From assembly GCF_002113885.1 (NCBI RefSeq), contig NW_018479869.1, positions 22,321 to 83,639 of the forward strand: a stretch of DNA of 61,319 bases, written 5' to 3'. The notes below the pieces were generated by a model. That model made no database searches. It worked only from the letters and a program-made list of their open reading frames with translations, and was not told the DNA's origin. This document shows, in pieces, positions 40,714 through 61,319 of this stretch; position 1 is the first letter of the stretch; every line of letters begins with the position of its first letter. The position numbers and the translations under genes were made by a program. Source of the stretch: Mizuhopecten yessoensis. Lineage: Eukaryota.

Positions 40714-41844
40714 TAACAGTTAAATATAACACTTGTGACTTATGACGTTGTCTTTCGATCAGTACAAATGAAACGCAAATATATTAACGCCTGTAGTAAA
40801 TTTTATATCAGGCACAGATACATTTTATTTTGTCTTTTCTAAAATAGACATTTATCCGTTTTCTCAAGGTTCTAACAGCTCCCAATACATTAAAACAGGA
40901 AGTTTATATTGAAGCAAGTGTAATAAAGTGAGTGTGAGTACATACCAATCAGTCAGAATCCTACCCTACTACGAACAACTCCAGGACAGTGTAATAAAGT
41001 GAGTGTGAGTACATACCAATAAGTCAGAATCCTACCCTACTACAAACAACTCCAGACAGTATAATAAAGTGAGCGTGAGTACATACCAATCAGTCAGAAT
41101 CCTACCCTACTACAAACAACTCCAGGACAGTATAATAAAGTGAGTGTGAGTACATACCAATCAGTCAGAATCCTACCCTACTACAAACAACTCCAGACAG
41201 TATAATAAAGTGAGTGTGAGTACATACCAATCAGTTAGAATCCAACCCTACTACAAACAACTCCAGGACAATATAATAAAGTGAGTGTGAGTACATACCA
41301 GTCAGTTAGAATCCAACCCTACTACAAACAGCTCCAGACAGTATAATAAAGTGAGTGTGAGTACATACCTATCAGTAAGAATACAACCCTACTACAAACA
41401 ACTCCAGACAGTATAATAAAGTGAGTGTAAGTACATACCAATAATATAATAATCCTATAATATACGATATAAATCGTCTGTTGTAACTCATAACAGTTAA
41501 ATATAACACTTGTGACTTATGACGTTGTCTTTCGATCAGTACAAATGAAACGCAAATATATTAACGCCTGTAGTAAATTTTATATCAGGCACAGATACAT
41601 TTTATTTTGTCTTTTCTAAAATAGACATTTATCCGTTTTCTCAAGGTTCTAACAGCTCCCAATACATTAAAACAGGAAGTTTATATTGAAGCAAGTGTAA
41701 TAAAGTGAGTGTGAGTACATACCAATCAGTCAGAATCCTACCCTACTACAAACAACTCCAGACAGTATAATAAAGTGAGTGTAAGTACATACCAATAATA
41801 TAATAATACTATAATATACGATATAAATCGTCTGTTGTAACTCA
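40714..41844. repeat. Tandem duplication (~40714-41489 and ~41491-41844) containing a 70-71-bp sub-repeat (~7.5 versus ~1.5 copies)
   Basis: An identical ~200-bp block TAACAGTTAAATATAACACTTG...GAAGCAAGTG starts both copies; both end in AAATCGTCTGTTGTAACTCA. Confidence 0.9.
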
Positions 41845-43715
41845 GTTTGTGACAATATAAAGGGGGTTTATAGACACCTTTGCTTTTTCGCTGTATTCTA
41901 CATATCTCTCGGAACATTTAAGGCATGGGATTTCATTCTTATGACATTTTGTACTAATGATTATTCCCCATTGAACGAAATGGCCACATGGTGAAATACA
42001 CATTTACCATGTTAACTATAACAGGATTTAATAGGAAACGTGACGAGTGCCTGGAAATTACTTGCCTCTTTGTCCATATCATATAACAACTTAAATTTAA
42101 AATTCACTCCAGTGTATAATTTGTAAACCCCAGTTCAAGATGTTTCCAATGATTGTCGGCTGTAGCCTGTATGACCGCCTCAGGGAGATTGTTACATACA
42201 TCGACAGTTCTGTAGCCAAAGGAATGTTTCCTTATAACTAATTTACAATGTTTTTCCTGTATTTTTTGAGTATGCTCTCTTATTCAAGATGTTGAGTCTG
42301 GATCAAAGATGCCAGCTTTGGTACAAGCTTTCTGCATATACGAACAACATTTACAAATAGGTGTTCCATTCCTTTGTATTTCTAATGAGAAATGGTAACA
42401 GGTACATTGTACATGAAATTTGGGAATTACATTTAAAAAGGCATTTCATGAAGATGATTATGAATCAAAGTACTAACCGACTTATAAGCAGTGCCTTTCA
42501 TTGTGTGTTTTTAAAGAAGCAACTTTTGAAAATACGCGAGACACATTTATCACCAATAATCAGTAAATAGACAGTTAATTGGTGGACAAGGGAGTTACGT
42601 AGCTTTGCTGTGTTATCATTCATACAGTGCAATGGAGAGTGAAAACTGTCTTATACATTAAAATCCTCATAAAAACAACGGAAGGTATTTTTAAAGACGT
42701 AATCTAACGTAAAATCTTTACCTGGTCTCGATCTTACAGAGCAATACCTAGGGGTACGTACCCCCGGGTTGAGGTCGAAGTTCATCAGTAATATTATCCA
42801 AAAGATAAATACCTCAGGTTAGGAAGAACTTACGATAAAACTATGTTGCCCTGCTATATATGTATGCCTAGTGCTGTAATTTTTCATTTCTGAAATAACG
42901 GAAATCACAAACAAACAAGAAAATTGAATAATATTTTAACACACACGGCAATATATTCTAGATTCACATAGAATTCCATACACCCCATACAAACGACACT
43001 TGTGAAAGGAAAATACCAGAAAGAATGGAATGTACAAGAAGGCAACAGTGGCACGGGAAGCGACGAACTTTAGAAAAGCAGAGTGTTTTGAATAGTGGAC
43101 AGTGTACTTAGCGCCGTCTGTGTCAGAGAAGATCACTTCCACGATTTCGCATTAAATATATTCTAGTATGTTTCCCATTCGATTTCTGCCTACAGTTGTT
43201 CAAAGTTTGTATAGTTTGTATAGTTTAATGTTGTTTGTATAGTTTGTATAGTTTAGTATAGTTTGTATAGTTAAGTATAGTTTGTTTAGTTTAGTATAGT
43301 TTGTATAGTTTATATAGTTTAGTAAAGTTTGTATAGTGAAGAATAGTTTGTATAGTTAAGTATAATCTGTATAGTTAAGTATAGTTTGTATAGTTTGTAT
43401 AGTTTAGTATTGTTTGTATAGTTTAGTATAGTTTGTATAGTTTAGTATAGTTTAGTATAGTTTGTATAGTTTAGTATATTTTATTTGGTTTAGTATAGTT
43501 TGTATATTTTAGAATAGTTTGTGTAGTTTAGTATAGTTTGTATAGTTAAGTATAGTTTATTATAGTTTGTATGTTTAGTATAGTTTAGTATAGTATGTAT
43601 AGTTTAGTATAGTTTGTATAGTTTGTTAAGTTTGTATGGTTTAGTATAGTTTGTATTGTTTGCATGTTTAGTATAGTTTGTATGGTTTAGTATAGTTATG
43701 TAGTTTTTATGCTTA

Positions 43716-43896
43716 TGTGGTGTTTGTTGACGTTCTGTAAGCGTGCGAATGACTGTGAGTGAAGCATGTGAGTGACCTCGAATTGTTCATGCATGTGTTT
43801 TGTTCCAAGATAAAAAGTACCCAAGCTGAGATAGCTGTCCAGTGTTCTATATTTGTGAAGCGTATGTGTGCCGACTGTACTGGTACGAATACAACA
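43716..43896 (+). repeat. 5' LTR (181 bp)
   Basis: TGTGGTG...TACAACA; no differences from the 3' LTR seen by eye. Confidence 0.97.
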
Positions 43897-43897
43897 A

Positions 43898-43911
43898 TGG
43901 CGTCACGAGCA
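43898..43911 (+). promoter_or_regulatory. Primer-binding site, tRNA-Ser(CGA)-type
   Basis: TGGCGTCACGAGCA lies 1 nt after the LTR and is complementary to a tRNA 3' end ...CGUGACGCCA, as in metazoan tRNA-Ser(CGA) with a GUCACG acceptor stem. Confidence 0.75.
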
Positions 43912-44291
43912 TTCCCGAGTCTGTTCGCGGAGGTCATGGATACGCTAGAATCCGAGGAGAATTTCTAGTGGGATTAATACAAGAGACGTAGAATCCCGGG
44001 TAGAGGGTGCGCGCCATCTTTGATTGTCTTTTGTGTGATACACGTGTTTTGTGTTTCACGTTGTCCCAATGTTTATGTTTTGTGTTTAGAGTTGTATCCT
44101 GGGTAGAGGGAGCAATTTATTCACAAATTCATTCGATAGTTGACCCGTGTAGAAGGCCAACTACTGTCTGATACCCTTGCGTGTTTTTAAATAATAAAAC
44201 AAAAACCAAAAACGAAACAAACGGAAACGGAACGGTTATCTTAGGACAATAAAAAAATAAAATATTTAGACAACATTTTATTCGTGGTCAC

Positions 44292-44579
44292 GTTGGTTAG
44301 GTGCTCTGGTGGCGCTGTACCAATGGTAACTGATGTTTGATTAATTTAGTTTCAAGTGTATTCAGTGAGGTAGGTGTTCTGTTGACGCCAGGCTGCTCTG
44401 AATATCTATATATATATTTATTAATTTTTTTTTGCTCGCTGTGGTAGGTGTTCTGTTTGACGCTAACCCTCGAGTATTATTTATATTAAAACCACAGCTA
44501 GGGTGTCGGTTGTTTTTCTCTTACTGTTCTAATATGCAGTGTGGTGGGTGGTAATTACCGCTACCCCTGTTTAATAGAA
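44292..44579 (+). other. Four related RNA stem-loops in the Gypsy leader (44292-44324, 44359-44404, 44434-44475, 44527-44579)
   Basis: GGTGC-TCTGGTG-GCGCT, GGTGT-TCTGTTG-ACGCC, GGTGT-TCTGTTTG-ACGCT and GGTGGT-AATT-ACCGCT, each on a different complementary basal stem. Confidence 0.7.
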
Positions 44580-44653
44580 ATAAATTTTGTAAAAGGATTT
44601 GGGTATATTTTTTTTTTTTTTTTCTCTTGTTGTTTCTGTGTTAACAGATCTAG

Positions 44654-45448
44654 ATGAACAAGCGGTATGCAGGGGTACTGATCGCAGATTCAAGAGCAAA
44701 TAATTTTCAAAGATTTGGTCATCCAGAGGATTTCAACATCAAATTTATAATTCAGAGAGGCGCACAAATTCAGGACCTGGTGGCATTATCAATTCCAATC
44801 GTTCGGACATTTGAACCATCAAAAACTTTAATAATAAAAGTTGCTGCTGGCATTAATGATTTGTTAAAATTGGAACGGGAGCCAGATGGGAAAATTCTAG
44901 TACCGTCAGACAGGTCACCGGACAATATTATTGAAGAACTTTCAGAATTTAGAACACGTGTACAGGTAGTTAGACCATCAAGCCGAGTTAGTTTCATCAC
45001 CATCCCTCCTGCTTCGTTAAAAGACTTTCAACTTAATAAATCCTCCAAACCAATTAACCAAAATCTGGTAACAAAATTACAAGAACAACACAATAAAACT
45101 GTGTTGGAGGTAAATTCTAGAATTCACCATTTAAATAACCAGACAGTGCCAACGGGTTGGACAGTTAAGTGGGCAGATACCATTGTTCACAAACACAAGA
45201 AAAGGAGAGGCCGTGCACGGAAAGTGATTACCGCTTACCGGTATTCCTTTGAACAGTATTACGATGGCTTACATGCCAAATCTGATGTAAAGAAAGAGTG
45301 GTACAAACAGGTGGTTTCTGGAATTCGAGGGGATATTACCAAATTGGAAAAACCAGGAAGTGAGATTCGAATTGTCACCACAGAATCTTCAGAAGAGGAC
45401 ACTCCGGTAGACACTGACGATAAAAGTTGGAAGAGACTTAAACGGTAA
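44654..45448 (+). CDS. SGNH/GDSL hydrolase-fold protein (264 aa) encoded inside the Gypsy element upstream of gag
   Basis: Blocks in the correct order and spacing: I LIADSR (Ser), II QRGA (Gly), III AAGINDL (Asn), V YYDGLH (Asp/His); uninterrupted ORF. Confidence 0.85.
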   Translation: MNKRYAGVLIADSRANNFQRFGHPEDFNIKFIIQRGAQIQDLVALSIPIVRTFEPSKTLIIKVAAGINDLLKLEREPDGKILVPSDRSPDNIIEELSEFRTRVQVVRPSSRVSFITIPPASLKDFQLNKSSKPINQNLVTKLQEQHNKTVLEVNSRIHHLNNQTVPTGWTVKWADTIVHKHKKRRGRARKVITAYRYSFEQYYDGLHAKSDVKKEWYKQVVSGIRGDITKLEKPGSEIRIVTTESSEEDTPVDTDDKSWKRLKR

Positions 45449-45454
45449 TTGTAA

Positions 45455-45568
45455 TACGGCAGCGGGTTGGTGATCTGTTGTCGCCTTATCCCCTGCACCG
45501 TAGAACTCTTAAACGATAAGTTGAGGTTGTGGGTTGGTGATCTGTTGTCGCCTTATCCCCTGCCACAA
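45455..45568 (+). other. 33-bp direct repeat (45464-45496, 45531-45563) forming two stem-loops between the SGNH ORF and gag
   Basis: GGGTTGGTGA-TCTGTTG-TCGCCTTATCCCCTGC occurs twice; basal stems TACGG/CCGTA and TTGTGG/CCACAA. Confidence 0.8.
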
Positions 45569-46971
45569 TGACTCGTATAAATTACTGTGAGAGACAAGAC
45601 CTACTACTATTGCCGGGTATTGGAGAGCGTCTGGCGGACAAAATTCTACAAGTCCGTGAAGTAATGGGGGACATTACTAAAGAGGTTCTGTTGGCCATTC
45701 CATACCTGAGGCCCACAGAGACCATGTTAAACCAAATAGACTTTACACCGCGATATGAACGGTTTACTGACATGGGTGAGAACTTGACGGGTGAGCATCA
45801 CACCTACAAAATGGACCCACCACCAAAGGTTCAACATCCTTCACCACCACGACTACAAGTTCAAAATCCAGGACCGTATTTTGACAATTATGGGTATCCT
45901 GGCAGCCGCCAGAGAGAACATCGACAGCAGTACCAGTACACTAATTACCGAGACCCATACGAACAGGAATACCACGGTCAGCCCCGTCAACCACAGTTCA
46001 ACTTTCCACCTCCAAGGTACAATCCGGGGAATCCGCCGCCAAGACGTGGACGGGTGGTAGCTCCCAAGACGTTACGCTATGATGGAAACTCCGATTGGAA
46101 AGCTTTTTGCACAAAGTTTACTAGATTCACTGAGGCGGAGAATCTTACTGCTCGTGAATGTCGGGATAACCTTTGCTGGATACTGGAGGGCAAAGCTAGT
46201 GAGTTTTTCACTATGCTCTTGGATCGTGATTCAACGATGGAATTTTTCGATATCATGTCAAAAATGGAACGCCGTTTTGGATTCAAGGAGCTGGCCGAGA
46301 CTACCCAAGCACGCCTTCGTAACGCCCGACAGTACCCTGACGAGAAGCTAGCAGATTGGGCTGATCGGGTGTTATCTTTAGCTACCAGAGCCTATCAGGA
46401 TCTGCCCGATGAGTTTATGTATAAACAAGCGATCTCCACAATTTGCCAGGGAGCAGCAGATAAAGAAGCAGGCCAATATGTTTCTAACCTAAGATTGGGA
46501 TCTATTGAGGAAGTGGTGGACAAGATGAGACTTTTTCAACATACAAGAAAGTCTATCTATGGTCGCGACCGTCCTAGACCTTCGCCTGTCGAAGAACTAA
46601 TCATACAAGAGGAAGAAGGTACTAGTGTCAGCAGGACATTCCAGCGTAGAGTCCCAAATTCTCAGTCCTCATTCCAGCCATCTTCAGCAACAAACCAAAG
46701 GCTGTCAGCCCTAGAAGACAAGGTATCGGACATGCAAAAATCCCTTAAACAAATTTTGGAGGCTGTTCGTGTCCCAGAGGAAAGGATCAAAAGGAATGTG
46801 GTTTGTTATGGTTGTGGCCAGACAGGCCATTTTAAGTCGAACTGTCCTAATGCTGAAGATAATAAATCTGTGAAACTCCTGGATGCGGCTGAAAAGACTG
46901 AAGGTGAAGAAGTAGTCCCTGGATCTGAAGAAGTTGAGGACTCGTTAAACACCGACAGGTCGGCCAACTAG
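45568..46971 (+). CDS. gag: Gag (467 aa) with an N-terminal helix-hairpin-helix motif and a C-terminal CCHC zinc knuckle
   Basis: INYCERQDLLLLPGIGERLADKILQVR (ComEA-type HhH); capsid-like YDGNSDWKAF...LEGKASEF...RQYPDEKLADW; CYGCGQTGHFKSNC. Confidence 0.92.
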   Translation: MTRINYCERQDLLLLPGIGERLADKILQVREVMGDITKEVLLAIPYLRPTETMLNQIDFTPRYERFTDMGENLTGEHHTYKMDPPPKVQHPSPPRLQVQNPGPYFDNYGYPGSRQREHRQQYQYTNYRDPYEQEYHGQPRQPQFNFPPPRYNPGNPPPRRGRVVAPKTLRYDGNSDWKAFCTKFTRFTEAENLTARECRDNLCWILEGKASEFFTMLLDRDSTMEFFDIMSKMERRFGFKELAETTQARLRNARQYPDEKLADWADRVLSLATRAYQDLPDEFMYKQAISTICQGAADKEAGQYVSNLRLGSIEEVVDKMRLFQHTRKSIYGRDRPRPSPVEELIIQEEEGTSVSRTFQRRVPNSQSSFQPSSATNQRLSALEDKVSDMQKSLKQILEAVRVPEERIKRNVVCYGCGQTGHFKSNCPNAEDNKSVKLLDAAEKTEGEEVVPGSEEVEDSLNTDRSAN

Positions 46972-49900
46972 ACCTAAGCCCGACCTTAGATGTTAAAAAT
47001 GGTCTTCATCCTACACGGTCAACAATTACACCAGATGACCTTATCAGTGAGGTAATGACTGATAACACCACCGAATCAACCCGTGTTGAACTTGATAATA
47101 TTACCCGATTACGGTCAACATCCATGTTTCAAGTGCCTGTTATCGTGGGAGGTTTTCATACAAGAGCAGTGGTGGATACCGGTGCTGAAGTATCAATCAT
47201 ATCGGATGAGGTATACAAAAACCTTGTTGAGCCACCCTCGATATTGAAACATGTGACACTTAATGCAGCAGGCAGAGATCAACCAATTGAGAGCTATATT
47301 GTTGGACCCATCGAACTAGATATAGGATCTAAGAGTTACAAGGTTAGCATTTATGTTGGACCAATTGAAGATGATATCTTGCTGGGTCTGGACTTTCTGA
47401 AGCCCAATAATGCTCAACTTGACATTTCAGGGGATACTCTTACCCTGGGTATTGGTGGAGAGAAAATTTCAGTGAACACAGGAAAAGAATTTTTACCTGC
47501 TTCCGAAGGCAAGGTATATGTACAGAAACGGACTGTAGTACCACCGAACAGTGTAGCAAGAGTGTGTTGTCGAATTTCCGGAAAGGTAGGCAGTTCTAGT
47601 CTAATTGTGGAGCCTACAGTAGAAAATGGACTACTAATTCCGAGATCATTGTATGACACAGCCTCGCAGATCAGGTTGTACTGTGTGAATGTCACGGACA
47701 GAAATATAATTCTGAAAAGGAAAACGGAAATTGCGATAGTCAATGAGGCAAGAGAAATTATTGCGAATGTTGAAAGTCATGCGGATCCCATATTTGTGGA
47801 GACATTACGCTGTGGCGAGGAAACACCGGACATTGCGCCTTCGCATGTACAGAGTCTCATTGATGGCGCGAAAGAACAGTTGTCGGTTGAGGAGTTAAGT
47901 CAATTTGCTCAACTTATTAAGGATAATTCCGATGTTTTTGCGAAAAATGACTTTGACCTGGGACATTTTAGTGCTATCAAACACAATATTGATACAGGTA
48001 CGGCACGGCCGATAAAGCAACGTTTTCGCAGAACGCCAGCATGTTTTGCCAACGAAGAGGATTTGCATCTAAAGAAGATGCTAGATTCTGGAGTTATCGA
48101 ATCCTCTACATCCGAGTGGGCGTCAGCACCAGTGCTGATCCGTAAACGTGACGGCGGAGTGCGCTGGTGCATAGATTATCGGGGACTGAACTCGGTAACT
48201 ACTAAAGACGTGTTTCCATTACCGTTAATAGAAGAATGCCTCGACGCATTGACCGATAACGTGTGGTTTTCGAAACTAGATGCCAACTCGGCTTATTGGC
48301 AAGTCCTTGTCAATGAATCGGACAGACATAAGACTGCCTTCAGTACAAAACACGGATTGTTTCAGTTTGTCAAAATGGGATTCGGACTTTGTAACGCCCC
48401 AGCAACTTATGCCAGAGTAATGAACCTGGTTCTTCGTGGATTAACATGGAACATTGTTCTTGCCTTCCTGGACGATGTGTTGGTTCTTGGGAAGACCTTC
48501 GATGAGCATCTCCAAAATCTAGCAGAAGTCTTTGAGCGCATCAGGGCGTATCAACTGAAACTCAAACCCGCTAAGTGCGAATTCTTTAAAAAGAAGGTTG
48601 ACTTCTTAGGGCGAACAGTTAGTGAAAGTGGCATTGAAACCAGTGGCAAACACATCGAAAAGATGAAGGAGTGGCCAACACCAACATCATCTAAGGATGT
48701 TGAGCAATTCTTGGGGTTTGCCAACTACCATCGCTCATTTATTCCCGAATATGCCAAAATTGCAGCTCCTCTGTACCAATTGACAGGAAAGAATGACTTT
48801 CGGTGGGATGAGGAACAGGAAAAAGCATTTTCCAGCTTAAAATCTTCCCTGAGTTCTCCACCTGTTTTGGGAATACCGAATAACAGCGATATGTTTGTGC
48901 TCGACACAGACGCATCTGACTTTGCTATTGGTGGTGAGTTGTGCCAAATTCAAGAAGGCAAGGAAAGAACAATAGCTTATGCTAGTTATTCCCTGACATC
49001 AGAACAGCGTCGCTATTGTACAACAAGAAAAGAACTTTTGGCAGTAGTTCGCTTTACCAGACAGTTTCGCCATTATCTGCTTGGTCGCAAGTTTGTGGTG
49101 AGAACTGATCACAACAGTTTGGTTTGGTTGCTCAACTTCAAAAATCCCCAAGGACAACTGGCGAGATGGCTTGAAGAGTTAAGCCAGTATGATCTAACTA
49201 TTGTACACCGAAAAGGAAAAGACCATCAAAATGCTGACAGTCTCTCCCGGAGTCTACCAAAAGACCAGTGCGGAAACTTGAAACATGGGCAAGATCCTAC
49301 CACGTTACCATGCGGAGGATGTGCCTATTGTACTCGGGCTCATGAACATTGGCATCAGTTTATCTCTGATGTGGACGAGGCGGTCTCTCTAAGTAACATA
49401 CCCTGCGTACAAAAAGTAACCCAGTCTGACAATACTTTCGCCGTGGAAGGAAGTCTATATAGCGAGAATTTGACCATAGAAGTGTCTGCTTTTGGAATAA
49501 ATATCCTCACTAGATCTGAAAGGAGTGATATTGAAGACATGAACGTCAACGCCTTGGATATTCAATTCTCGGGTTACTCGGCAAAGGAAATCCGGACTGC
49601 TCAGGAGCAAGATCCAGAGTTATCTATACTGCTAGAGTGGGTAAAGAATAAGAAAGAGGTGGACGAAGGAGAACTGTTTGGATCCAGTAGAGCCATAAAG
49701 TATTACTGGATTAACCGTGAGTTATACTTCCTGGATGAGTCTGGTATATTGTGGAGGAAGGATCTAGAAGACACTAGCAAAACTCAATCCTTGGTTATAC
49801 CTCCCAGTATGAGAGAAGACGCTATTTCTTTGTGCCATGACATCCCGGCTAGCGCTCATCAGGGAATCAACCGAACAGAATCCATGGTTCGCCAGAGGTT

Positions 49901-51080
49901 CCATTGGTATGGCTTGCCTCGCGACGTTCAAAAGTTCGTGAAATCCTGTGTCATCTGCAACACCAAGAAAAAAGCCAGTCGAAAGGCTCGATGCCCGTTG
50001 ACTCTTTTCCAATCAGGGGAACCCATGGAAAGAGTTCATCTTGACTTCTTGGGCCCACTACCCATAACAGCAACAGGAAATGAACACATATTAGTTATGG
50101 TAGACCAGTTTACCAAATGGGTTGAATGTGTTCCCTTACCTTCGCAGACCGCCGCGACAACCGCAAAAGCAGCTGTAAACGAATTCTTCGCGAGATTTGG
50201 ATATCCGTTCCAAATTCATACAGACCAAGGTAGAAACTTTGAAAGTCGTCTGTTTAAAGCTTTGTGTGAAGTTACGCAAATTCATAAAACTCGTACAACG
50301 GCTTATAGACCTTCTGCCAATGGACAAGTGGAGAGGTATAATCGCACCATCATGAACGCAGTTCGATGCTTCATAAACTCTCAAAGTGAATGGGACATCT
50401 ATTTACCACAGCTAGCTGGCGCGCTAAGGTGTTCCGTAAACCGCCAAACTGGACATACCGCCAACAAGTTAATGCTGGGCCGGGAGACCAATCAGCCTGC
50501 AGATCTCTTGTATGCCGCTCCATCGAACAAGAAGGCGAAGGACTCTCGCGACTCTGAAAGTTATGTGGACAATTTGGTAGATGCAATTCAGCGTGCCCAT
50601 GAAACCGCCAGAAAAACCCTTGCCACAACGCAGAGGAGAATGAAACGTGATTACGATGTTCGCGTTTACACTACCGAGTTCATTGAAGGGGATGTGGTCT
50701 ACGTCTTCGACAATGCAACGCCTAAGGGACAAAATCCCAAGTTAAAGGCCGTTTGGAAAGGTCCTGGACTCATAGTCAAAAAGTACACGCCGTACGTCTA
50801 TGGAGTACAGATGGGGAAGACGCGACAAGTCATTAATCACGATCGATTAAAAATGTGTAATGACCGTAAGCGACCCCAATGGATAATCGATCTCCAGGAG
50901 CACCGAGCGGAACCGGTAGAGGAAACCCACTGTGTCTGCCATCAAACGGATGATGGGACCATCATGATCCAGTGTGACTTTTGTTTTGTGTGGTTCCATG
51001 GACGTTGTGTGGGCTTAAATGTAGAGGAAGCCGAACAGCTGGAACTTTATTGCTGTACTACGTGTGAACTATCTGTATAA
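46938..51080 (+). CDS. pol: Pol polyprotein (protease, RT, RNase H, integrase, PHD finger); frame open from 46938, first ATG at 47055
   Basis: VDTGAEVS; RWCIDYR, FGLCNAPATY, FLDDVL; DTDAS, TDH; HHCC zinc finger; DFLGP...TDQGRNFES...NGQVERYN; WKGP; terminal C4HC3 PHD. Confidence 0.97.
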   Translation, partial: GLVKHRQVGQLDLSPTLDVKNGLHPTRSTITPDDLISEVMTDNTTESTRVELDNITRLRSTSMFQVPVIVGGFHTRAVVDTGAEVSIISDEVYKNLVEPPSILKHVTLNAAGRDQPIESYIVGPIELDIGSKSYKVSIYVGPIEDDILLGLDFLKPNNAQLDISGDTLTLGIGGEKISVNTGKEFLPASEGKVYVQKRTVVPPNSVARVCCRISGKVGSSSLIVEPTVENGLLIPRSLYDTASQIRLYCVNVTDRNIILKRKTEIAIVNEAREIIANVESHADPIFVETLRCGEETPDIAPSHVQSLIDGAKEQLSVEELSQFAQLIKDNSDVFAKNDFDLGHFSAIKHNIDTGTARPIKQRFRRTPACFANEEDLHLKKMLDSGVIESSTSEWASAPVLIRKRDGGVRWCIDYRGLNSVTTKDVFPLPLIEECLDALTDNVWFSKLDANSAYWQVLVNESDRHKTAFSTKHGLFQFVKMGFGLCNAPATYARVMNLVLRGLTWNIVLAFLDDVLVLGKTFDEHLQNLAEVFERIRAYQLKLKPAKCEFFKKKVDFLGRTVSESGIETSGKHIEKMKEWPTPTSSKDVEQFLGFANYHRSFIPEYAKIAAPLYQLTGKNDFRWDEEQEKAFSSLKSSLSSPPVLGIPNNSDMFVLDTDASDFAIGGELCQIQEGKERTIAYASYSLTSEQRRYCTTRKELLAVVRFTRQFRHYLLGRKFVVRTDHNSLVWLLNFKNPQGQLARWLEELSQYDLTIVHRKGKDHQNADSLSRSLPKDQCGNLKHGQDPTTLPCGGCAYCTRAHEHWHQFISDVDEAVSLSNIPCVQKVTQSDNTFAVEGSLYSENLTIEVSAFGINILTRSERSDIEDMNVNALDIQFSGYSAKEIRTAQEQDPELSILLEWVKNKKEVDEGELFGSSRAIKYYWINRELYFLDESGILWRKDLEDTSKTQSLVIPPSMREDAISLCHDIPASAHQGINRTESMVRQRFHWYGLPRDVQKFVKSCVICNTKKKASRKARCPLTLFQSGEPMERVHLDFLGPLPITATGNEHILVMVDQFTKWVECVPLPSQTAATTAKAAVNEFFARFGYPFQIHTDQGRNFESRLFKALCEVTQIHKTRTTAYRPSANGQVERYNRTIMNAVRCFINSQSEWDIYLPQLAGALRCSVNRQTGHTANKLMLGRETNQPADLLYAAPSNKKAKDSRDSESYVDNLVDAIQRAHETARKTLATTQRRMKRDYDVRVYTTEFIEGDVVYVFDNATPKGQNPKLKAVWKGPGLIVKKYTPYVYGVQMGKTRQVINHDRLKMCNDRKRPQWIIDLQEHRAEPVEETHCVCHQTDDGTIMIQCDFCFVWFHGRCVGLNVEEAEQLELYCCTTCELSV
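46944..47005 (+). promoter_or_regulatory. Putative -1 ribosomal frameshift signal (G TTA AAC plus stem-loop/pseudoknot)
   Basis: pol is -1 to gag and overlaps it over 46938-46971; slippery heptamer at 46944-46950 in the correct phase; 6-nt spacer; stem AGGTCGG/CCGACCT. Confidence 0.75.
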
Positions 51081-51116
51081 GTGTGAACTGACTCCACAGT
51101 ATACAGGGACTTCTAT

Positions 51117-51130
51117 AAAAGAGGGAGGAA
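51117..51130 (+). promoter_or_regulatory. Polypurine tract
   Basis: AAAAGAGGGAGGAA directly before the 3' LTR. Confidence 0.9.
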
Positions 51131-51311
51131 TGTGGTGTTTGTTGACGTTCTGTAAGCGTGCGAATGACTGTGAGTGAAGCATGTGAGTGACCTCGAATTG
51201 TTCATGCATGTGTTTTGTTCCAAGATAAAAAGTACCCAAGCTGAGATAGCTGTCCAGTGTTCTATATTTGTGAAGCGTATGTGTGCCGACTGTACTGGTA
51301 CGAATACAACA
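51131..51311 (+). repeat. 3' LTR (181 bp)
   Basis: Matches the 5' LTR; followed by the CTTA TSD. Confidence 0.97.
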
Positions 51312-52803
51312 CTTAGTATAGTTTAGTATTGGCTTGTATAGTTTAGTATTGGCTTGTATAGTTTAGTATAGTTTGCAGAGTTTAGTATAAATTGTACAGT
51401 TTAGTATATTTTATATAGTTTAGTATAGTTTGTATCGTTTAGAATAGTTTGTATAGTTTGTATATTTTGAATATTTTAGTATATTTTGTATAGTTTGTAA
51501 GGTTTAGTATAGTTTATTATAGTTTGTACTTTTAGTATAGTATGTATAGTTTAGTATAGTTTGTATGGTTTAGTATAGTTTGTATTGTTTGCATGTTTAG
51601 TATAGTTTGTATAGTGTGTATAGTTTAGTATAGTTTGCATAGTTTAGTATAGTTTGTATAATTTAATATAGTTGGTATAGTTTATTATAGTTTGTATGTT
51701 TAGTGTAGTTTAGTATGTATAGTTTGTATAATTTAGTATTGTTTGTATAGTTTAGTATAGTTTAATTTAGTCTGTATTTTTAGTTTAGTTTAGTATAGTT
51801 TAGTATAGTGTGTATAGTTTAAGTTAGTTTGTATAGCTTCATATGGTTGGTATAGTTTATTATAGTTTGTTTGTTTAGTTTAGTTTAGTATAGTATCTAT
51901 AGTTTGTATAGTTTAGTATAGTTTGTAAAGTTTTATGGTTTAGTATAGTTTGTATGTTTAGTATAGTTTAGTATAGTTAAGTATAGTGTTTATAGTTTGT
52001 ATAGTTTGGTATAGTTTAGAATAGTTTACTATAGTTAAGAATAGTTAAGTATAGTTTGTATAGTGTGTATAGTTTGCATAGTTTAGTATAGTTTGTATAG
52101 TTTAATATAGTTGGTATAGTTAATCATAGTTTATCATAGTTTATCATAGTTTGTATGTTTAGTTTAGTATGTATAGATTGTATAGTTTAGTATTGTTTGT
52201 ATAGTTTAGTATAGTTTGTATAGTTAAGTATAGTTTGTATGTTTAGCATAGTTTGTATTGTTTGCATGTTTAGTATAGTTTGTATAGTGTGTATAGTTTA
52301 ATATAGTTTGCATAGTTTAGTATAGTTTGTATAATTTAATATAGTTGGTATAGTTTATTATAGTTTGTATGTTTAGTTTAGTTTAGTATGTATAGTTTGT
52401 ATAATTTAGTATTGTTTGTATAGTTAAGTATAGTTTAATTTAGTCTGTATTTTTAGTTTAGTTTAGTATAGTTTAGTATAGTGTGTATAGTTTAGTTTAG
52501 TTTGTATAGCTTCATATAGTTGGTATAGTTTATTATAGTTTGTTTAGTTTAGTTTAGTATAGTATCTATAGTTTGTAAAGTTTAGTATAGTTTGTATGTT
52601 TAGTATAGTTTAGTATAGTTAAGTATAGTGTTTATAGTTTGTATAGTTTGGTATAGTTTAGAATAGTTTTCTATAGTTAAGAATAGTTAAGTATAGTTTG
52701 TATAGTGTGTATAGTTAAGAATAGTTAAGTATAGTTTGTATAGTGTGTATAGTTAAGAATAGTTAAGTATAGTTTGTATAGTGTGTATAGTTAAGAATAG
52801 TTT

Positions 52804-53707
52804 NNNNNNNNNNNNNNNNNNNNNNNNNNNNNNNNNNNNNNNNNNNNNNNNNNNNNNNNNNNNNNNNNNNNNNNNNNNNNNNNNNNNNNNNNNNNNNNNN
52901 NNNNNNNNNNNNNNNNNNNNNNNNNNNNNNNNNNNNNNNNNNNNNNNNNNNNNNNNNNNNNNNNNNNNNNNNNNNNNNNNNNNNNNNNNNNNNNNNNNNN
53001 NNNNNNNNNNNNNNNNNNNNNNNNNNNNNNNNNNNNNNNNNNNNNNNNNNNNNNNNNNNNNNNNNNNNNNNNNNNNNNNNNNNNNNNNNNNNNNNNNNNN
53101 NNNNNNNNNNNNNNNNNNNNNNNNNNNNNNNNNNNNNNNNNNNNNNNNNNNNNNNNNNNNNNNNNNNNNNNNNNNNNNNNNNNNNNNNNNNNNNNNNNNN
53201 NNNNNNNNNNNNNNNNNNNNNNNNNNNNNNNNNNNNNNNNNNNNNNNNNNNNNNNNNNNNNNNNNNNNNNNNNNNNNNNNNNNNNNNNNNNNNNNNNNNN
53301 NNNNNNNNNNNNNNNNNNNNNNNNNNNNNNNNNNNNNNNNNNNNNNNNNNNNNNNNNNNNNNNNNNNNNNNNNNNNNNNNNNNNNNNNNNNNNNNNNNNN
53401 NNNNNNNNNNNNNNNNNNNNNNNNNNNNNNNNNNNNNNNNNNNNNNNNNNNNNNNNNNNNNNNNNNNNNNNNNNNNNNNNNNNNNNNNNNNNNNNNNNNN
53501 NNNNNNNNNNNNNNNNNNNNNNNNNNNNNNNNNNNNNNNNNNNNNNNNNNNNNNNNNNNNNNNNNNNNNNNNNNNNNNNNNNNNNNNNNNNNNNNNNNNN
53601 NNNNNNNNNNNNNNNNNNNNNNNNNNNNNNNNNNNNNNNNNNNNNNNNNNNNNNNNNNNNNNNNNNNNNNNNNNNNNNNNNNNNNNNNNNNNNNNNNNNN
53701 NNNNNNN
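52804..53707. other. Assembly gap (N run) within the satellite
   Basis: 904 N bases. Confidence 1.
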
Positions 53708-55796
53708 ATAGTTAAGTATAGTTTGTATAGTGTGTATAGTTAAGAATAGTTAAGTATAGTTTGTATAGTGTGTATAGTTAAGAATAGTTTGTATAGTGTG
53801 TATAGTTTGCATAGTTAAGTATAGTTTGTATAGTGTGTATAGTTAAGAATAGTTAAGTATAGTTTGTATAGTGTGTATAGTTTGCATAGTTTAGTATAGT
53901 TTGTATAGTTAAATATAGTTGGTATAGTTAATTATAGTTTATCATAGTTTATCATAGTTTGTATGTTTAGTTTAGTATGTATAGATTGTATAGTTTGTAT
54001 AGTTTAGTATAGTTTGTATAGTTAAGTATAGTTTGTATGTTTAGTATGGTTTAGTATTGTATAGTTTGTACAGGTTGCATAGTTTAGTAGTTTGTATAGT
54101 TTGTATAGTTTAGTATAGTTTGTATAGTTTAGTATAGTTTGTATAATTTGTATAGTTTAGTATTGTTTGTATAGTGTATATAGTTTGCATAGTTTAGTAT
54201 AGTTTGGTATAGTTTAGTATAAATTGTACAGTTTAGTATATTTTATATAGTTTAGTATAGCTTGTATAGTTTAGTATAGTTTGTATAGTTAAGTATAGTT
54301 TGTATAGTTTAGTATAGTTTGTATAGTTTAGTATAGTTTGTAGTGTGTATAGTTTTCATAGTTTAGTATAGTTTTTATAGTTTAATATAGTTGGTATAGT
54401 TTATTATCGTTTGTATGTTTAGTTTAGTATGTATAGTTTAGTATAGTTTGTATAGTTAAGTATAGTTTGTATGTTTAGTATGGTTTAGTATTGTATAGTT
54501 TGTGCAGGTTGCATAGTTTAGTAGTTTGTATAGTGTGTATAGTTTAGTATAGTTTGTATAATTTGTATAGTTTAGTATTGTTTGTATAGTGTATATAGTT
54601 TGCATAGTTTAGTATAGTTTGGTATAGTTTAGTATAAATTGTACAGTTTAGTATATTTTATATAGTTTAGTATAGCTTGTATAGTTTAGTATATTTTGTA
54701 TAGTTAAGTATAGTTTGTATAGTTTAGAATAGTTTGTATAGTTAAGTATATTTTGTATAGTTTAGTATAGTTTGTATAGTTTAGTATAGTTTGTATAGTT
54801 TAGTATAGTTTGTAGTGTGTATAGTTTGCATAGTTTAGTATAGTTTTTATAGTTTAATATAGTTGGTATAGTTTATTATCGTTTGTATGTTTAGTTTAGT
54901 ATGTATAGTTTAGTATTGTTTGTATAGTTAAGTATATTTTGTATGGTTTAGTATAGTTTGTATTGTTTAGTATAGTTGTATAGTTTTTATGCTTAGTTTA
55001 GTTTAGTATTGTCTTGTATAGTTTAGAATAGTTTGTATAGTTTAGTATAGTTTGTATAATTTGTATAGTTTAGTAAAGTTTGTAGATAGTTAAGTATAGT
55101 TTGGTATAGTGTATATAGTTTACATAGTCTTTTATAGTTTGGTAAAGTTTAGTTAGGTATAGTTTAGTATAAATTGTACAGTTTAGTATATTTTATATAG
55201 TTTAGTATAGTTTAGTTTAGATAGTTAAATATAGTTTAGTATAGTTTGTATCGTTTAGAATAGTTTGTATATTTTAGTATATTTTGTATAGTTTATATAG
55301 TTTAGTATATTTTGTATAGTTAAGTAAAGTTTGTAGATAGTTTAGTATAGTTTGGTATAGTTTAATATAGTTTGTATAGTTAAGTATAGTTCAGTATAGT
55401 TTGTATGTTTAGTATAGTATGTCTAGTTTAGTATAGTTTGTATAATTTGTATAGTTTAGTATAGTTTGTATAGTGTATATAGTTTGCATAGTTTAGTTTA
55501 GTACAGTTTAGTATATTTTATATAGTTAAGTATAGTTTGTATAGTTTCATTTAGTTGGTATAGTTTATTATAGTTTGTATGTTAAGTATAGTTTGTATAG
55601 TTTAGTATAGTTAAGTATAGTTTGTATAGTTTAGTATATTTTGTATAGTTAAGTATTGTTGGTATAGTTTAATATAGTTGGTATAGTTTATTATAGTTTG
55701 TATGTTTAGTTTAGTTTAGTATTGTTTGTATAGTTTGTATAGTTTAGTATAGTTGTATAGTTTTTATGCTTAGTATAGTTTAGTATTGTCTTGTAT

Positions 55797-55910
55797 TTTT
55801 TGTTTGTTTGATTTTTTTTAACGTCCTATTAACAGCTAAGGTCATTTAAGGACGGCCTCCCCTGTGTGCAAGATGCATGCGTGTAGTGTTTGCGTGTGTA
55901 TTTTGGGAGG
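55797..55910 (-). mobile_element. 5'-truncated SINE 3' end with a (CAAA)n tail and a 12-bp TSD
   Basis: Minus strand ...ATGACCTTAGCTGTTAATAGGACGTTAAAA...CAAACAAACAAAAA; ATTGTCTTGTAT at 55785-55796 and 55911-55922. Confidence 0.85.
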
Positions 55911-56751
55911 ATTGTCTTGTATAGTTTAGTATAGTTTGTATAGTTTGCATAGTTTGTATAATTTAGTATAGTTTGTATAATTTGTATAGTTTAGTATAGT
56001 TTGTATAGTGTATATAGTTTGCATAGTTTAGTATAGTTTGGTATAGTTTAGTATAGTTTAGTATAAATTGTACAGTTTAGTATATTTTATACAGTTTAGT
56101 ATAGTTTGTATAGTTAGTTTGTATCGTTTAGAATAGTTTGTATAGTTTGTATATTTTGTATAGTTTAGTATATTTTGTATAGTTTGTAAAGTTTATTATA
56201 TTTTGTATAGTTAAGTAAAGTTTGTAGATAGTTTGGTATAGTTTGGATAGTTTAATATAGTTTGTATAGTTAAGTATAGTTTGTATGTTTAGTATAATAT
56301 AGTTTAGTATAAATTGTAGTTTAGTATATTTTATGTAGTTCAGTATAGTATGTCTAGTTTAGTATAGTTTGTATAGTTTAGTATAGTTTGTATAGTGTAT
56401 ATAGTTTTCATAGTTTAGTAGTTTAGTTTAGTATAAATCGTACAGTTTAATATATTTTATATAGTTAAGTATAGTTTGTATAGTTTAGTATAGTTTGTAT
56501 AGTTTGGTTAGTTTAGTATAGTTTGTATGGTGAAGTATAGTTTGTATGTTTAGTATAGTTTGTATAGTTTAGAATAGTTTGTATAGTTTAGTATATTTTG
56601 TATAGTTAAGTAAAGTTTGTATAGTTTTAGTATACTATGTATAGTCTAGTATAGTTTGTAAAGTTAAGTATAGTTTGTTTAGTTTAGTATAGTTTAGAAT
56701 AGTTTGTATAGTTAAGTATATTTTGTATAGTTTAGTATAGTTTGTATAGTT

Positions 56752-59700
56752 ATTGTATATGTAGAGGTATTATGGCAACATTTGTGTGTATTCTTAAGAG
56801 CCGAAATTCTGAATCCGTCTCCGGTCGTGTTAACATTCTCTCCACAGATGTAAAGAAAACGAGAGAGGATACTTTCTGGCCTAACGGTATTCGTGTTCGA
56901 AAGTGGTATTCATATAATCAGCACTATGGTGCCAACGGTAAAGCAAACATCGATGTTGGCCAGTAACGGTCTTCTTTTTTCTTTATGCATCTATGCCTTC
57001 GTGATGGCTTCTGTGCACATTATGACTTGGAATGTGACCGGCATCATGTCGTCAGCCTCGTACCTGCACGATGCATTACAGACAGAAAACGTTGACATTT
57101 GCGGAATTTCAGAGCACTGGCTATTCGAAGAAAATGTTCACATGTTACAAAGTATTCATTCTGGTTACGACTATTTCGCCATTTGTGATTTTTCAACACA
57201 TGCCTTATCTGACCACAGAACGCGAAAATGAGGTGTAGCCCTTTTATGGAAAAAAACTCTGTCGAACCGCATAACTGTTGTTGATTCAGACGATGACCAC
57301 ATCACTATCCTAAAGCTTGTTTCTAATTCCGGTGTGTGGCATGTTATACAGGTATATCTACCCAATACGAGCTATGGTTCTGAAGCTTTTAACCAGTACA
57401 TCGACAAGATAGACGTTCTGTGCGAGTCTTTTTCTCTTCAAGGATCAACCATTATCATGGGAGACTTCAACGCTCGCCTTAGTGGTCCTCGACTACCAGA
57501 CGACTATCAAAACAACAGAGGTGCTCGCCTTCAACGGTGCCTGGATCGTCACCAGTTGTGTGCTTTAACGACATCGTTAATTTGTTCCGGTCCGTTGCAT
57601 ACTTACGTGCACTCCGATTATGGCGCCTCGTCGCTTATTGATCATGTGATTGTTGACTCTTCCAAACTTGATCTTATCTCGAACTGTCATGTTGGCGGTC
57701 AGGATTACTTAGACGTCTCAAATCACAGAACTATCTTCTGTGATATCTCCTTTCCTACCGTGTCCCAAGTTGACAGTCCTCAAATGGAACGCATCACTTT
57801 TAAATGGACTTCACCTGATGCCTCCGCCTCCGCAGGTACAGCACTTTATAACGAGAACCTTCATAGTTTTATTGTGAAGTCAAACCTTAACTCTCTCGAG
57901 TTAAAAGCATCCTCCGACATTGACATTTTTAATGATCGTTTGATCAAATGTTTACAGGACGTCTCTTTAGCTTCCCTTCAAAAGCGGAAGTTCCGGGAAT
58001 TCCTAAAGCCTTATTGGAAGGGTGAACTTAAAGGGCTACACCATGAGATGTGGAGGTTAAGGTGTATTTGGGATAACGAAGGTCGGCCTCGTGATCCCGA
58101 TTTCCATTCTTTCCGGATGTATAAGGACGCAAAACGTGAGTTTCGTCGTAAGCACCGCCGATTATCAGAGGACCACCTTTTGACTCTGAACTTAGATATT
58201 GAGAACGCAGCAGATTTAAATTTAAATTCATTTTGGTCCCTAATTAAAGCCCGGTCTAATAGAGTGTCCACTGGATCTGCCGGAGCTGAAATAGTGTTTA
58301 ATAATTTAACTGTTAGAGATCCGTCGGATTTAGCGTTGCGCTGGGGGGAGTACTTTGCTGAAATTTACTCTCACTCAGATGATAGTGTTTGTGACAGTGA
58401 TTTTGTAAAATCTGGACTTTCAGATTTTCTGCAAGGTAATGGTCCATTGGAAGAATCAGCTGCGATAGTTTTTACGGTTGAGGAAATTAAATGTTGTTGT
58501 AAAAGTTTTCCTCATGGAAAGGCACCCGGTGTAGATTCACTTGTTTATGAAAACCTTATATATGCCTGCGACTCTCTGTATAAATGCTTATGCACATTGT
58601 TTAATGCTTTTGCAAAATTAGAATATGTACCAACTTTTCTTAAACAAGGCTTGATATGCACATTATATAAAGGTCATAACAAACCTAAGAATGACCCAAA
58701 TAGCTATAGAGCAATATCGCTTTTATCAGTCATATTGAAAGTTTATGAAAAACTGTTACTGACAAGATTAGAAAGTTCAGAACTTTTTTGTGTGAATCCA
58801 TTACAACATGGATTCCAAAAACAAGTAAGTAGTACCATGACTTCATATATTGTGCATGAAGCCATTGAGTATGCAAGTGAACTTGATAGCAAGTTGTTTA
58901 CATGTTTCTTAGACGCTTCAAAAGCTTTTGACTGTGTGTGGCATGACGGTCTATTTCTCAAACTCGCACGTTTGGGTTTTAGTCGGAAATATGTATGTGT
59001 AATTATGTCCTTGTATAAAGATATGTTTAGTGTTGTTATTCATCAAAACTTTGTATCGAAAATGTTCAAGATATGCCAGGGAATCCGTCAGGGTAGTATT
59101 ATCTCCCCTTGGTTATACTTTGTTTATATAAATGATCTCTTGAATGATCTTTGTGATTCTAATTATTTCTTGAGTATCTGTGATATCAACATTACTTGCC
59201 CAACACAGGCAGACGATATATGTCTTCTTGCTTTTTCTGAACACAATTTAGATTTGCTCATTCATATATGTTAGTATAGCTGTAAATGGAGGTTTAGATA
59301 CAACCCCTCCAAATCAGTAATAATCGTTTATAACGAACGAACTAGTAACCACTCACAGTCGAACCGTAGGTGGCACTTAGGCGACAGTGACGTCACTGAA
59401 TGTACAAATGTTAAACATGTTGTGATTAGTATAAATAAGTTTAAACCAGGTCGCCCTGATGTCGATGAAGTTATCCACAAAATACGTGGTCAATGTTTTG
59501 CTCTTTTGAATTGTAATTTATTCGGCCCCAGCATCAACCCTTTAACAGGAGTGAAAATATACCTCTCTATTGTTCTCCCTCGAAGCATATTTGGCTGTGA
59601 GTTGTGGTACTCACTTACAAACTCAGATTGGCGTCGTCTGTAATCAGTACATCACTTGTGTGCCAAACTAATTCAAAATTTCCCACTGAGGACCAGATCT

Positions 59701-60715
59701 GACATCGCATTAGGTATGCTTGGTTTATCATCACTTCATTTATACGTAGATCAATGTAAGCTTCGCTTTTTTGCGGCATTATGTAGAACCAAAACTAATT
59801 GTACATCTAAACAGCTGTTTTTATTGCGATTGTATCAAAATCGCCTTGGTGTAAATAAAGCTAAAAAGGGTTTTATTGTTGATGCAATTGACATACTGTA
59901 TAAGTACAACTTTAATGACTTTTTAAATGAATTTTTTAAGTCGGGTAATTTTCCTCCAAAGTTATGTTGGAAACATCTAGTTAAAAATGTTCTTCTTTGT
60001 AAAGAATCAGAAGACTGGAAAACTCGTTTAAATCATTCGTCTTATTTTTCGAGATTCAAAAATCTTTATCCTGAAATGACACCTTCAGTGATCTGGTACT
60101 TTTCAAAATGTCATCCTTCTTTTATTGGAATTTGCAAAACTGTTTCCAAAATGTGGATTGCTCCATCTGATTGCGAACTATTTTGCGCTAATAGCAAGAG
60201 TACTTTTGAAGACGCAGTCGCCCATTGTTTGTTAGACTGCGGCGAATTAGAATTAGCAAATTTGCAGGATACACTTTTGACGAACTTTGTAAATAAATAT
60301 CCTGTGTATGTTTATGTGTCTTTCGACCAGTCAGACAGAGAAGTCCAGGTGGCTACTCTGCTTGGTGCTCCAAGCGATGTTATTTGTGATACTCTTAATG
60401 ACGATGTAAAATCGCTCACGTCTTTTATCAAAGATTGCCTAATATTTGCGGAAAAAGCGTTCTATATGACCTTCCAATAAATCTAGCTAATTTTGTAGCA
60501 GCCATTGCAATGAGTCTTCCTTTAACCACCTTTCATTGACTTATAACGTGTCTTTACATTTTCTTCAAGATGTGATTATGAAATGATATTAATATCAATT
60601 GTATCTCAATTTTTGTCAGCACCATTTTTTTGTTGTTCTCATGTCACTTGGACTCACCATTCTCATCCACATTGTACTCTTCATTATTTTGGAGGAAATA
60701 AAGATATGAATGAAT
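56752..60715 (+). mobile_element. 5'-truncated non-LTR retrotransposon (RTE-X/CR1-group-like): ORF1 tail plus near-complete ORF2 (APE-RT) with three in-frame stops
   Basis: ORF1 tail FWPNGIRVRKW. APE: MTWNVTG, ICGISEHWL, MGDFNA, IDH, SNH. RT: KAPGVD, YRAISLL, LDASKAFDCVWH, GIRQG, QADD. Stops at 57229, 59272 and 59641, with all segments in one frame. 3' AATAAA plus (TGAA)n tail. Confidence 0.92.
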
Positions 60716-61319
60716 AGTTTAGTATAGTTTGTATAGTTTAGTATAGTTTGTATAGTGAATATAGTTTGCATAGTTTAGTATAGTTTTGTTTAGTTGAGTA
60801 TAGTTTATTATAAATTGTACAGTTTAGTATATTTTTTATATAGTTTAGTATAGTTTGTATAGTTAAATATAGTTTAGTATAGTTTGTATAGTTAGTTTGT
60901 TTCGTTTAGAATAGTTTGTATATTTTGCATAGTTTAATATATTTTGTATAGTTTGTATAGTTTAGTATATTTTGTATAGTTTAGAATAGTTTGTATATTT
61001 TGTATAGTTTAGTAAAGTTTGTAGATAGTTTAGTATAGTTTGGTATAGTTTGTATGTTTAGTATAGTATAGTTTAGTATAAATTATAGTTTAGTATATTT
61101 CATGTAGTTCAGTATAGTTTGTATGTTTAGTATAGTTTGTCTAGTTTAGTATAGTTTGTATAGGTTAGTATAGTTTGTAGCGCAAAATACTGTTCTTGCT
61201 GCTTTTTTTTTGACATTAACATATATATAAATATACATACAATGTCCATGGGCGTCTAGAATCGCCTATGGGCGTATATATTAACAAATAAGTATAAATT
61301 CACATTTTGATATAAAAAA

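Follow-up and report, generated by a model that had tools for sequence, protein, structure and literature searches.

The open reading frame at positions 44654 to 45448 of the window, which we call ORF0, is almost certainly a gene carried in addition to gag and pol by an intact Ty3/Gypsy element; by the window we mean the whole stretch of 61,319 nucleotides of Mizuhopecten yessoensis DNA that was analyzed. With the same near-certainty we consider that this gene has kept its place ahead of gag across three or more divergent lineages, under purifying selection, and that its product is a soluble, strongly basic protein of the SGNH fold with a complete Ser-His-Asp triad and the oxyanion residues. 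As to its role, we tentatively favor, by analogy and at somewhat less than an even chance, a basic esterase that would bind anionic membranes and aid the assembly, trafficking or egress of the particle.

SGNH/GDSL open reading frames have already been described in several classes of transposon, one LTR lineage included (PMC5408684). What is new here is the position of the SGNH gene 5' of gag, a large hidden family, distinctive surroundings of the active site, and repeated RNA hairpins. In the literature searched, no Ty3/Gypsy element was reported to have a separate SGNH open reading frame 5' of gag; one may be described in Repbase, GyDB, subscription papers or supplements. Neither esterase nor hydrolase was found as a term in PMC13524379, PMC8220671, PMC8556966 or PMC6338049, and in PMC7599744 the one match was a reference entry.

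The element and its three open frames

ORF0 lies inside an intact LTR retrotransposon (43716-51311), between the primer-binding site and gag. The parts of this element are as follows.

43712..43715, + strand: 5' copy of the 4-bp target-site duplication CTTA; the same four bases follow the 3' LTR
43716..43896, + strand: 5' LTR, 181 bp, TG...CA ends, 100% identical to the 3' LTR
43898..43915, + strand: primer-binding site, beginning with TGG one base past the LTR
44654..45448, + strand: ORF0, predicted SGNH hydrolase, 264 aa, pI 9.85 (open reading frame, model and conserved motifs; Ser13, Gly36, Asn68, Asp204, His207)
45185..45244, + strand: Lys/Arg-rich beta-hairpin of ORF0, residues 178-197, inserted ahead of block V (alignment, model)
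45350..45445, + strand: acidic/Ser tail of ORF0, residues 233-264, modeled with low confidence, ending in WKRLKR and putatively NLS-like (alignment, model)
45568..46971, + strand: gag, 467 aa, with Retrotrans_gag, one CCHC knuckle and a weak N-terminal helix-hairpin-helix (Pfam)
46944..46950, + strand: putative -1 frameshift heptamer G TTA AAC, near-canonical, in the gag/pol overlap (sequence)
46938..51080, + strand: pol frame, with protease, RT, RNase H, integrase and a C-terminal PHD finger (Pfam)
51117..51130, + strand: polypurine tract, a purine run ahead of the 3' LTR
51131..51311, + strand: 3' LTR (self-comparison)
51312..51315, + strand: 3' copy of the target-site duplication, CTTA, matching the 5' copy

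The two LTRs were the sole repeat pair around ORF0 in the self-comparison; the repeat block as matched held one further shared A at its 5' side, and it was trimmed to the TG...CA ends. The order of the pol domains (protease, RT, RNase H, integrase) is that of Ty3/Gypsy elements. The window holds one copy of this element, and its ORF0, gag and pol frames are all open. From the set of LTRs, primer-binding site, polypurine tract and domains, together with the three open frames, we conclude that ORF0 belongs to a very recent, apparently intact copy.

The pol and gag frames overlap at G TTA AAC, with pol in the -1 frame, and T TTA AAC or G GGA AAC occurs at all five of the related gag ends. The stem 3' of the heptamer was no better than those of shuffled sequences (z -1.07). 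A dUTPase was looked for with Pfam in the window element and the related loci, and no match was found. At the C-terminus of the integrase there is a PHD finger (50931-51065; Pfam PHD E 1.6e-6, above the cut-off), which is not in the three full-length related pols, and for which the literature searched holds no clear precedent. The element sits in satellite DNA, and the finger is possibly a chromatin-targeting module. The N-terminus of Gag shows a weak helix-hairpin-helix match (45577-45681; HHH_3 E 0.002, below the cut-off), and the related Gags begin without this N-terminal extension. In the ESM Atlas, Gag gave scores under 0.8 only. The leader also carries a 10-bp purine-rich repeat, GGGTAGAGGG, twice (43998-44007 and 44101-44110).

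The satellite is a GT-skewed array of 9/19 bp at 43204-43697, 51316-56751 and 60714-61179, with a 904-base N gap at 52804-53707. Besides the LTR element it hosts a non-LTR retrotransposon with in-frame stops (56750-60710; RVT_1 E 4.8e-22). A further RT fragment lies on the minus strand at 30946-31632. Other tandem arrays were seen at 1-264, 1029-3860, 1863-2097, 7667-8891, 11942-13679 and 40917-41442, with units of 30, 42, 37, 51 and 70 bp, the 30-bp unit also being inverted; the long open reading frames within them are repeat artefacts.

The sequence-only reading had taken ORF0 as a stand-alone SGNH/GDSL gene 5' of gag, and the present analysis bears this out. ORF0 runs from an ATG at 44654 to a TAA at 45448, and the start of gag lies 119 nt past this stop, so that the two are separate frames within one element. 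When the leader, ORF0 and spacer were base-shuffled 1000 times, no shuffle reached a frame of 264 codons (longest 234, mean 89). The protein has no hydrophobic segment, the best 19-residue Kyte-Doolittle mean being 1.09. This value and the location 5' of gag, not 3' of pol, rule out an env-like gene, in agreement with the earlier view that the protein lacks a signal peptide and a transmembrane segment. A homodimer prediction, run without use of an alignment, gave a score of 0.00 but no verdict, and it is given no weight here.

Fold, active site and basic surface of ORF0

By sequence alone, ORF0 found no SGNH match in Pfam and no SGNH relative among PDB sequences, and just 7 of 114 family members reached Lipase_GDSL at E<=0.01. 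A profile search of PDB sequences gave chance matches only with a 12-sequence alignment, and one GDSL protein at E 0.17 with a 114-sequence alignment. Matches to Filo_VP24 and hemagglutinin were rejected as chance similarity at the level of helices. In the ESM Atlas, ORF0 matched annelid and mollusc clusters at 0.95 and, at 0.93, clusters in which a minority of members (21-30%) are Lipase_GDSL_2. Since the sequence libraries miss ORF0, its assignment to SGNH stands on structure and motif conservation.

The AlphaFold model made from 114 aligned sequences had a pLDDT of 92 and a pTM of 0.85, residues 233-264 being its low-confidence part. It shows an alpha/beta/alpha fold with a parallel sheet, as in SGNH proteins, and the SGNH core begins at residue 5. 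Comparison by Foldseek and VIA-align gave a best match of Z 18.9 with an rmsd of 2.2 A over 170 residues, and the best 50 matches listed were, as judged by title, SGNH/GDSL-fold entries throughout; that is, the predicted structure is the one that had been expected from the motifs. Among the matches listed were sialate O-acetylesterase (Z 17.5), PAF acetylhydrolase (16.9) and Oskar OSK (14.4). The listed fold neighbors, which include carbohydrate esterases, are all 8-19% identical to ORF0. The viral structure library yielded only generic phage and giant-virus SGNH proteins (8-16% identity). The ZfL2-1 esterase (4C1B) was not among the structural matches listed; because 4C1B is domain-swapped (PMC10792757), ranking it against cellular SGNH proteins is an unfair comparison.

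The motifs named in the sequence-only reading are all in place: ADS at residues 11-13, RGA at 35-37, GIND at 66-69 and DGLH at 204-207, so that the catalytic set is intact; a basic run is present at 179-190 and an acidic-then-basic tail at 247-264. Conservation was examined in 145 aligned proteins of 200-340 aa, drawn from 183 and including the window protein, with each column counted over the rows that have a residue there. In block I, D12 was kept in 125/127 and S13 in 126/127 rows; the oxyanion glycines G36 and G66 were kept in 136/138 and 142/144; and in block V, D204 was kept in 138/142 and H207 in all 141. All five of Ser13, Gly36, Asn68, Asp204 and His207 occurred in 83 of the 123 rows covering them, figures that are partly given by construction because the rows were chosen by profile. 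The same residues were conserved in the 11 matches of the first single-sequence search, so that the catalytic residues hold among homologues as well. Asn68 was Asn in 103/144 and Cys in 41/144, and thus the oxyanion hole is not uniform across the family. In the 114-row alignment, Cys took the place of the block III Asn in 33/114 with Ser, Asp and His retained, mostly in one tree clade.

Several features set the family apart. The residue right after the nucleophile, Arg14, is Arg in 125/128 rows of the 145-row alignment and in 108/111 rows of the 114-row alignment, against 0/30 reference SGNH structures (PMC10792757 Table 2). Block II is xGA in 86/114 members and PGA in 22, and it resembles the FPGARV of the ZfL2-1 esterase in the same table. 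In the 145-row alignment, the basic insert ahead of block V has a median length of 30 residues, of which 8 are Lys/Arg and 1 is Asp/Glu, and its net charge is at least +4 in 110 of 114 relatives. It is modeled as a beta-hairpin whose strands (178-183 and 192-197) run into block V, and the model has a second hairpin after block III. From SGNH topology it follows that both hairpins should lie on the active-site face. The net charge of the core is positive in 114/114 members (median +12; +5 without the insert). The acidic/Ser tail with its terminal W-K/R-K/R is found in 44/114 members and is missing in 70/114. Such an NLS-like tail suggests a nuclear destination more than a membrane one, and it counts against the membrane role.

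These features bear on two alternatives to a membrane esterase. One is a deacylase, possibly nuclear, that would free a host molecule of O-acetyl, palmitoyl or a similar acyl group and so relieve silencing or restriction. The intact catalytic set, the NLS-like tail, the PHD finger at the end of pol, and the sialate O-acetylesterases, PAF acetylhydrolase and carbohydrate esterases among the closest folds are consistent with it, and deacetylation and depalmitoylation are listed as possibilities for the ZfL2-1 esterase (PMC3905857). However, no substrate can be named, the fold neighbors are too distant in sequence to reveal a function, the tail is missing from most members, and the same source reports no histone deacetylase activity for the ZfL2-1 esterase. 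We consider this explanation unlikely.

The other alternative starts from Arg14, which, we infer, implies an anionic substrate. Aminoacyl-tRNA is an ester on a polyanion, and every complete context seen was a tRNA-primed element. ORF0 might cut the aminoacyl ester of a charged tRNA to give a free 3'-OH for reverse transcription, with the hairpin and Arg14 gripping the phosphates of the acceptor end. Such a primer-preparing enzyme is reasoned out purely from these features and has no precedent in the literature searched. In addition, most LTR elements prime without a tRNA-deacylating enzyme, and related esterases are carried by elements that do without a tRNA primer. It is very unlikely in our estimation. 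tRNA primers are treated in general terms in PMC11506809.

Related elements, purifying selection and RNA hairpins

The family comprises 797 representatives at 50% identity (E<=0.001), and 318 at 1e-10. Its named matches are a sea cucumber protein and proteins labeled as genes of Sedimenticola or Thiodiazotropha MAGs. No fused longer form (556-2000 aa) was found among 6092 candidates, which is weak evidence, and ten longer or divergent members had no added Pfam domain. A scan of genome contigs with the block V motif as the pattern yielded six loci (L001-L006), all from two Sedimenticola MAG assemblies (JBEVXV01 and JBEVXT01 contigs), so that genomic context covers seven members: the window element and these six. 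Because the loci have LTRs, primer sites, gag and pol, we think that they are probably animal-type retrotransposons binned with a bacterium. These Gypsy elements sit inside bacterial MAGs that are used as GTDB genomes, and their proteins bear bacterial labels in NCBI.

In five of the six loci the SGNH frame lies directly 5' of gag, and four of these have pol. The pol of the related loci is just 32-38% identical to that of the window. Together with the window element, the loci form three lineages, between which identity is 45-50% for RT-RNase H and 19-27% for Gag, and whose primer-binding sites differ. In L002 (1-12032) the element is repeated in tandem every 6826 bp, with a single LTR linking neighboring copies. 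The two ends of L003 overlap by 91 bp (1-91 and 6517-6607), as would be seen with a one-LTR circle or a collapsed tandem.

In L006, a tail-truncated ORF0 is followed immediately by an unrelated frame of 750 aa (2249-4498) without a Pfam match, which we take to resemble an EnSpm/CACTA-type transposase. We did not adopt the idea that a DNA transposon captured ORF0 at this locus: homology to the L004 LTR element extends through ORF0 and 60 nt beyond it, and a disrupted LTR copy is thus the simpler account.

Between the ORF0s of L002, L003, L004 and L006, pS was 0.68-0.85 and pN 0.17-0.37, like the values for gag, and dN/dS was 0.11 and 0.18 where dS was finite. By these sequence measures ORF0 evolves under purifying selection. 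This bears on a further alternative, that a host or foreign esterase was captured once and has been carried as a neutral passenger without benefit. The GC content of ORF0 (0.39), which is below those of gag (0.47) and pol (0.45), agrees with capture; ZfL2-1 ORF1 was dispensable in HeLa assays (PMC3905857), and the variation of a rotifer ORF3 within one genome looked neutral (PMC5408684). In contrast, the position of ORF0 has been kept between lineages as divergent as those above, its synonymous sites are saturated while the protein is conserved, and the family numbers 797 clusters. The passenger explanation is largely refuted, and we regard it as extremely improbable.

The leader and the ORF0-gag spacer contain repeated RNA structures and candidate splice signals.

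44293..44568, + strand: four two-stem RNA hairpins in the leader, at 44293-44322, 44366-44395, 44440-44470 and 44540-44568 (motif scan, folding)
44609..44647, + strand: pyrimidine tract (28/32) that ends near AACAG, 6 nt ahead of the ORF0 ATG; candidate splice acceptor (sequence)
45462..45558, + strand: two hairpins in the ORF0-gag spacer, at 45462-45491 and 45529-45558, within a 33-bp direct repeat (motif scan, folding)
45503, + strand: candidate acceptor AG in the ORF0-gag spacer (sequence)

The upper stem of the hairpins has the form GUGN-loop-N'CGC. Leader and spacer, 876 nt in all, contain six of them where 0.12 would be expected, and six were reached in 0/1000 shuffles, under a motif that had been defined after the sequences were inspected. 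Each of the six forms in the minimum-energy structure (z -2.5 and -3.0), and the variable stem position takes all four Watson-Crick pair types. In each of L002-L004 one similar hairpin precedes ORF0 and another precedes gag, and L006 has one past its ORF0, giving 7 observed against 0.37 expected across the six loci. The motif is not in L001 or L005, which keep ORF0. When only the window hairpins were used to build a covariance model, it picked up 3 of these 7 sites (E 0.88-2.3, not significant), its best match (E 0.047) falling outside them, so that homology of the hairpins between lineages is suggested at most. Rfam gave no credible match to the leader or the spacer. The ORF0 of the window groups with those of the hairpin-bearing loci L002-L004 (tree support 0.946), and identities, in place of a rooted RT tree, suggest that the relationships of ORF0 and RT are discordant.

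Seven ATGs precede the ORF0 start in the leader. The pyrimidine-tract acceptor had been missed by a stricter scan. As seen by eye, a YAG lies within about 25 nt of the ORF0 start in three of the six loci. A donor-like hexamer GTAAGT, also seen by eye, lies between ORF0 and gag in all six and overlaps the hairpin motif in three. Judging from such signals, ORF0 is probably made as a separate protein from spliced RNA.

These findings allow a different account, in which a nuclear ORF0 made from spliced RNA would bind the leader hairpins through its Lys/Arg beta-hairpin, and would control, in the manner of Rev or CERV, how the unspliced genomic RNA is exported, spliced, translated or packaged, the esterase site serving as a switch or a second function. 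It is favored by the excess of hairpins and their four pair types, by their recurrence before ORF0 and gag in the loci whose ORF0s group with that of the window, and by the upstream ATGs with the acceptor-like tract. It also has precedents: CERV of the C. elegans element Cer1 is made from a spliced mRNA and is required for genomic RNA export (PMC10309623), and OSK is an RNA-binding protein of the SGNH fold. On the other hand, the motif was set after inspection and the covariance model found fewer than half of the sites, L001 and L005 hold ORF0 without the motif, and the hairpins may be mere packaging signals bound by Gag, or splice signals. Moreover, OSK has lost catalysis (PMC10792757), and the same would be expected of an ORF0 that was a pure adaptor. 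Taken comprehensively, this account is rather unlikely.

Comparison with known transposon esterases and the possible role of ORF0

Among the closest known systems is ORF3 of the Vesta LTR elements of bdelloid rotifers, a GDSL frame 3' of pol that is common to Athena elements (PMC5408684; echoed in PMC6431247 and PMC5718144). Like ORF0, it is a stand-alone SGNH/GDSL frame of an LTR element, with intact catalytic residues and without a transmembrane segment or coiled coil. It differs in lying 3' of pol, in rotifer-specific clades that bear a dUTPase, whereas the window ORF0 lies 5' of gag in an element without a dUTPase match. ORF0 is not placed with the Vesta type because of this position.

Esterase domains also occur in the ORF1s of CR1, RTEX and Penelope elements (PMC3905857). 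The esterase of the LINE ZfL2-1 (4C1B), and that of Neptune ORF1, share with ORF0 a place in the first frame, the SGNH fold, a very basic character, an intact triad, the block II xGA and an arginine-rich segment. However, the ZfL2-1 esterase forms one domain of a coiled-coil ORF1p, which stands in for Gag, whereas ORF0 is a separate single-domain protein beside a true Gag. The transposon-specific His191 of ZfL2-1, the first residue of block III and one of a residue pair needed for its catalysis, has no counterpart: at the equivalent ORF0 column 64, His occurs in 0/114. Arg replaces the gating Ile144 of ZfL2-1 in the ORF0 family, and the basic segment of ORF0 is a beta-hairpin inside the fold. 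Ser228 of ZfL2-1, likewise transposon-specific, likely corresponds to position 116 of ORF0, which is Thr/Ser in 93/114, an equivalence by spacing only. For lack of a coiled coil and of His191 in 114/114, ORF0 is not placed in the LINE ORF1 esterase class.

In amphibian Ngaro, a retrotransposon with gag and RT, an extra SGNH frame likewise occurs, but it follows the recombinase frame, and the element has split direct repeats and no integrase (PMC9210276). A Helitron-borne SGNH gene is known (PMC4021074), and plant elements can carry extra frames upstream or downstream of gag-pol (PMC7264820). CERV is likened to ORF0 by role alone, as an accessory nuclear regulator of an LTR retrotransposon made from spliced mRNA (PMC10309623). 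Oskar OSK (PDB 5A4A) has the SGNH fold, there used for RNA binding; it has lost the catalytic Ser and His, both of which the ORF0 family keeps.

By analogy, ORF0 may work like the LINE ORF1 esterase or Vesta ORF3. A membrane role is proposed for it because the ZfL2-1 protein (pI 10.8), a slow esterase, attaches through its surface charge to liposomes and anionic phospholipids but not to oligo-A RNA (PMC3905857). We speculate that the separate ORF0 protein, probably translated from spliced RNA, would dock with its basic face and Lys/Arg hairpin on a polyanionic surface, the most likely one being an anionic phospholipid membrane, as measured for ZfL2-1. There it would hydrolyze an acyl ester, whose anionic part may be held by the Arg after the nucleophile. 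ORF0 would thus be a membrane adaptor comparable to a matrix protein, and a switch for release, while the env-less particle is assembled, trafficked or leaves in vesicles. The lack of an N-terminal coiled coil and of His191 speaks against this membrane esterase. In addition, the basic hairpin of ORF0, taken with the six RNA hairpins, fits RNA binding equally well as membrane binding.

A broader conjecture, which we hold to be decidedly unlikely, is that these elements form a widespread, undescribed Ty3/Gypsy group of marine invertebrates with the plan ORF0-gag-pol, in which ORF0 would be an RNA-directed esterase. Its Lys/Arg hairpin would sit on the leader stem-loops or on tRNA, its active site would act on an RNA-linked ester (for example, in deacylation of the primer tRNA) or gate the export or packaging of genomic RNA, and ORF0 with the hairpins would move between Gypsy lineages as a modular cassette.

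LINEs, Penelope-like elements, Ngaro, Helitron and one LTR lineage have all acquired SGNH esterases, and the reason has been open since the ZfL2-1 structure. Because ORF0 is encoded beside a true Gag, the esterase is here more than a substitute for Gag. ORF0 is small, single-domain and well modeled, which makes the old question on transposon esterases directly testable. Since Pfam misses this family of hundreds of clusters, annotation pipelines would pass such elements as plain gag-pol. The ORF0-gag-pol layout common to the related elements points to a step of the life cycle that is not yet understood. If ORF0 acts on RNA or tRNA, it would be an accessory protein of a kind new to retroelements; if its part is to help egress at membranes, it would be a candidate for an env-independent route of cell-to-cell or horizontal spread.
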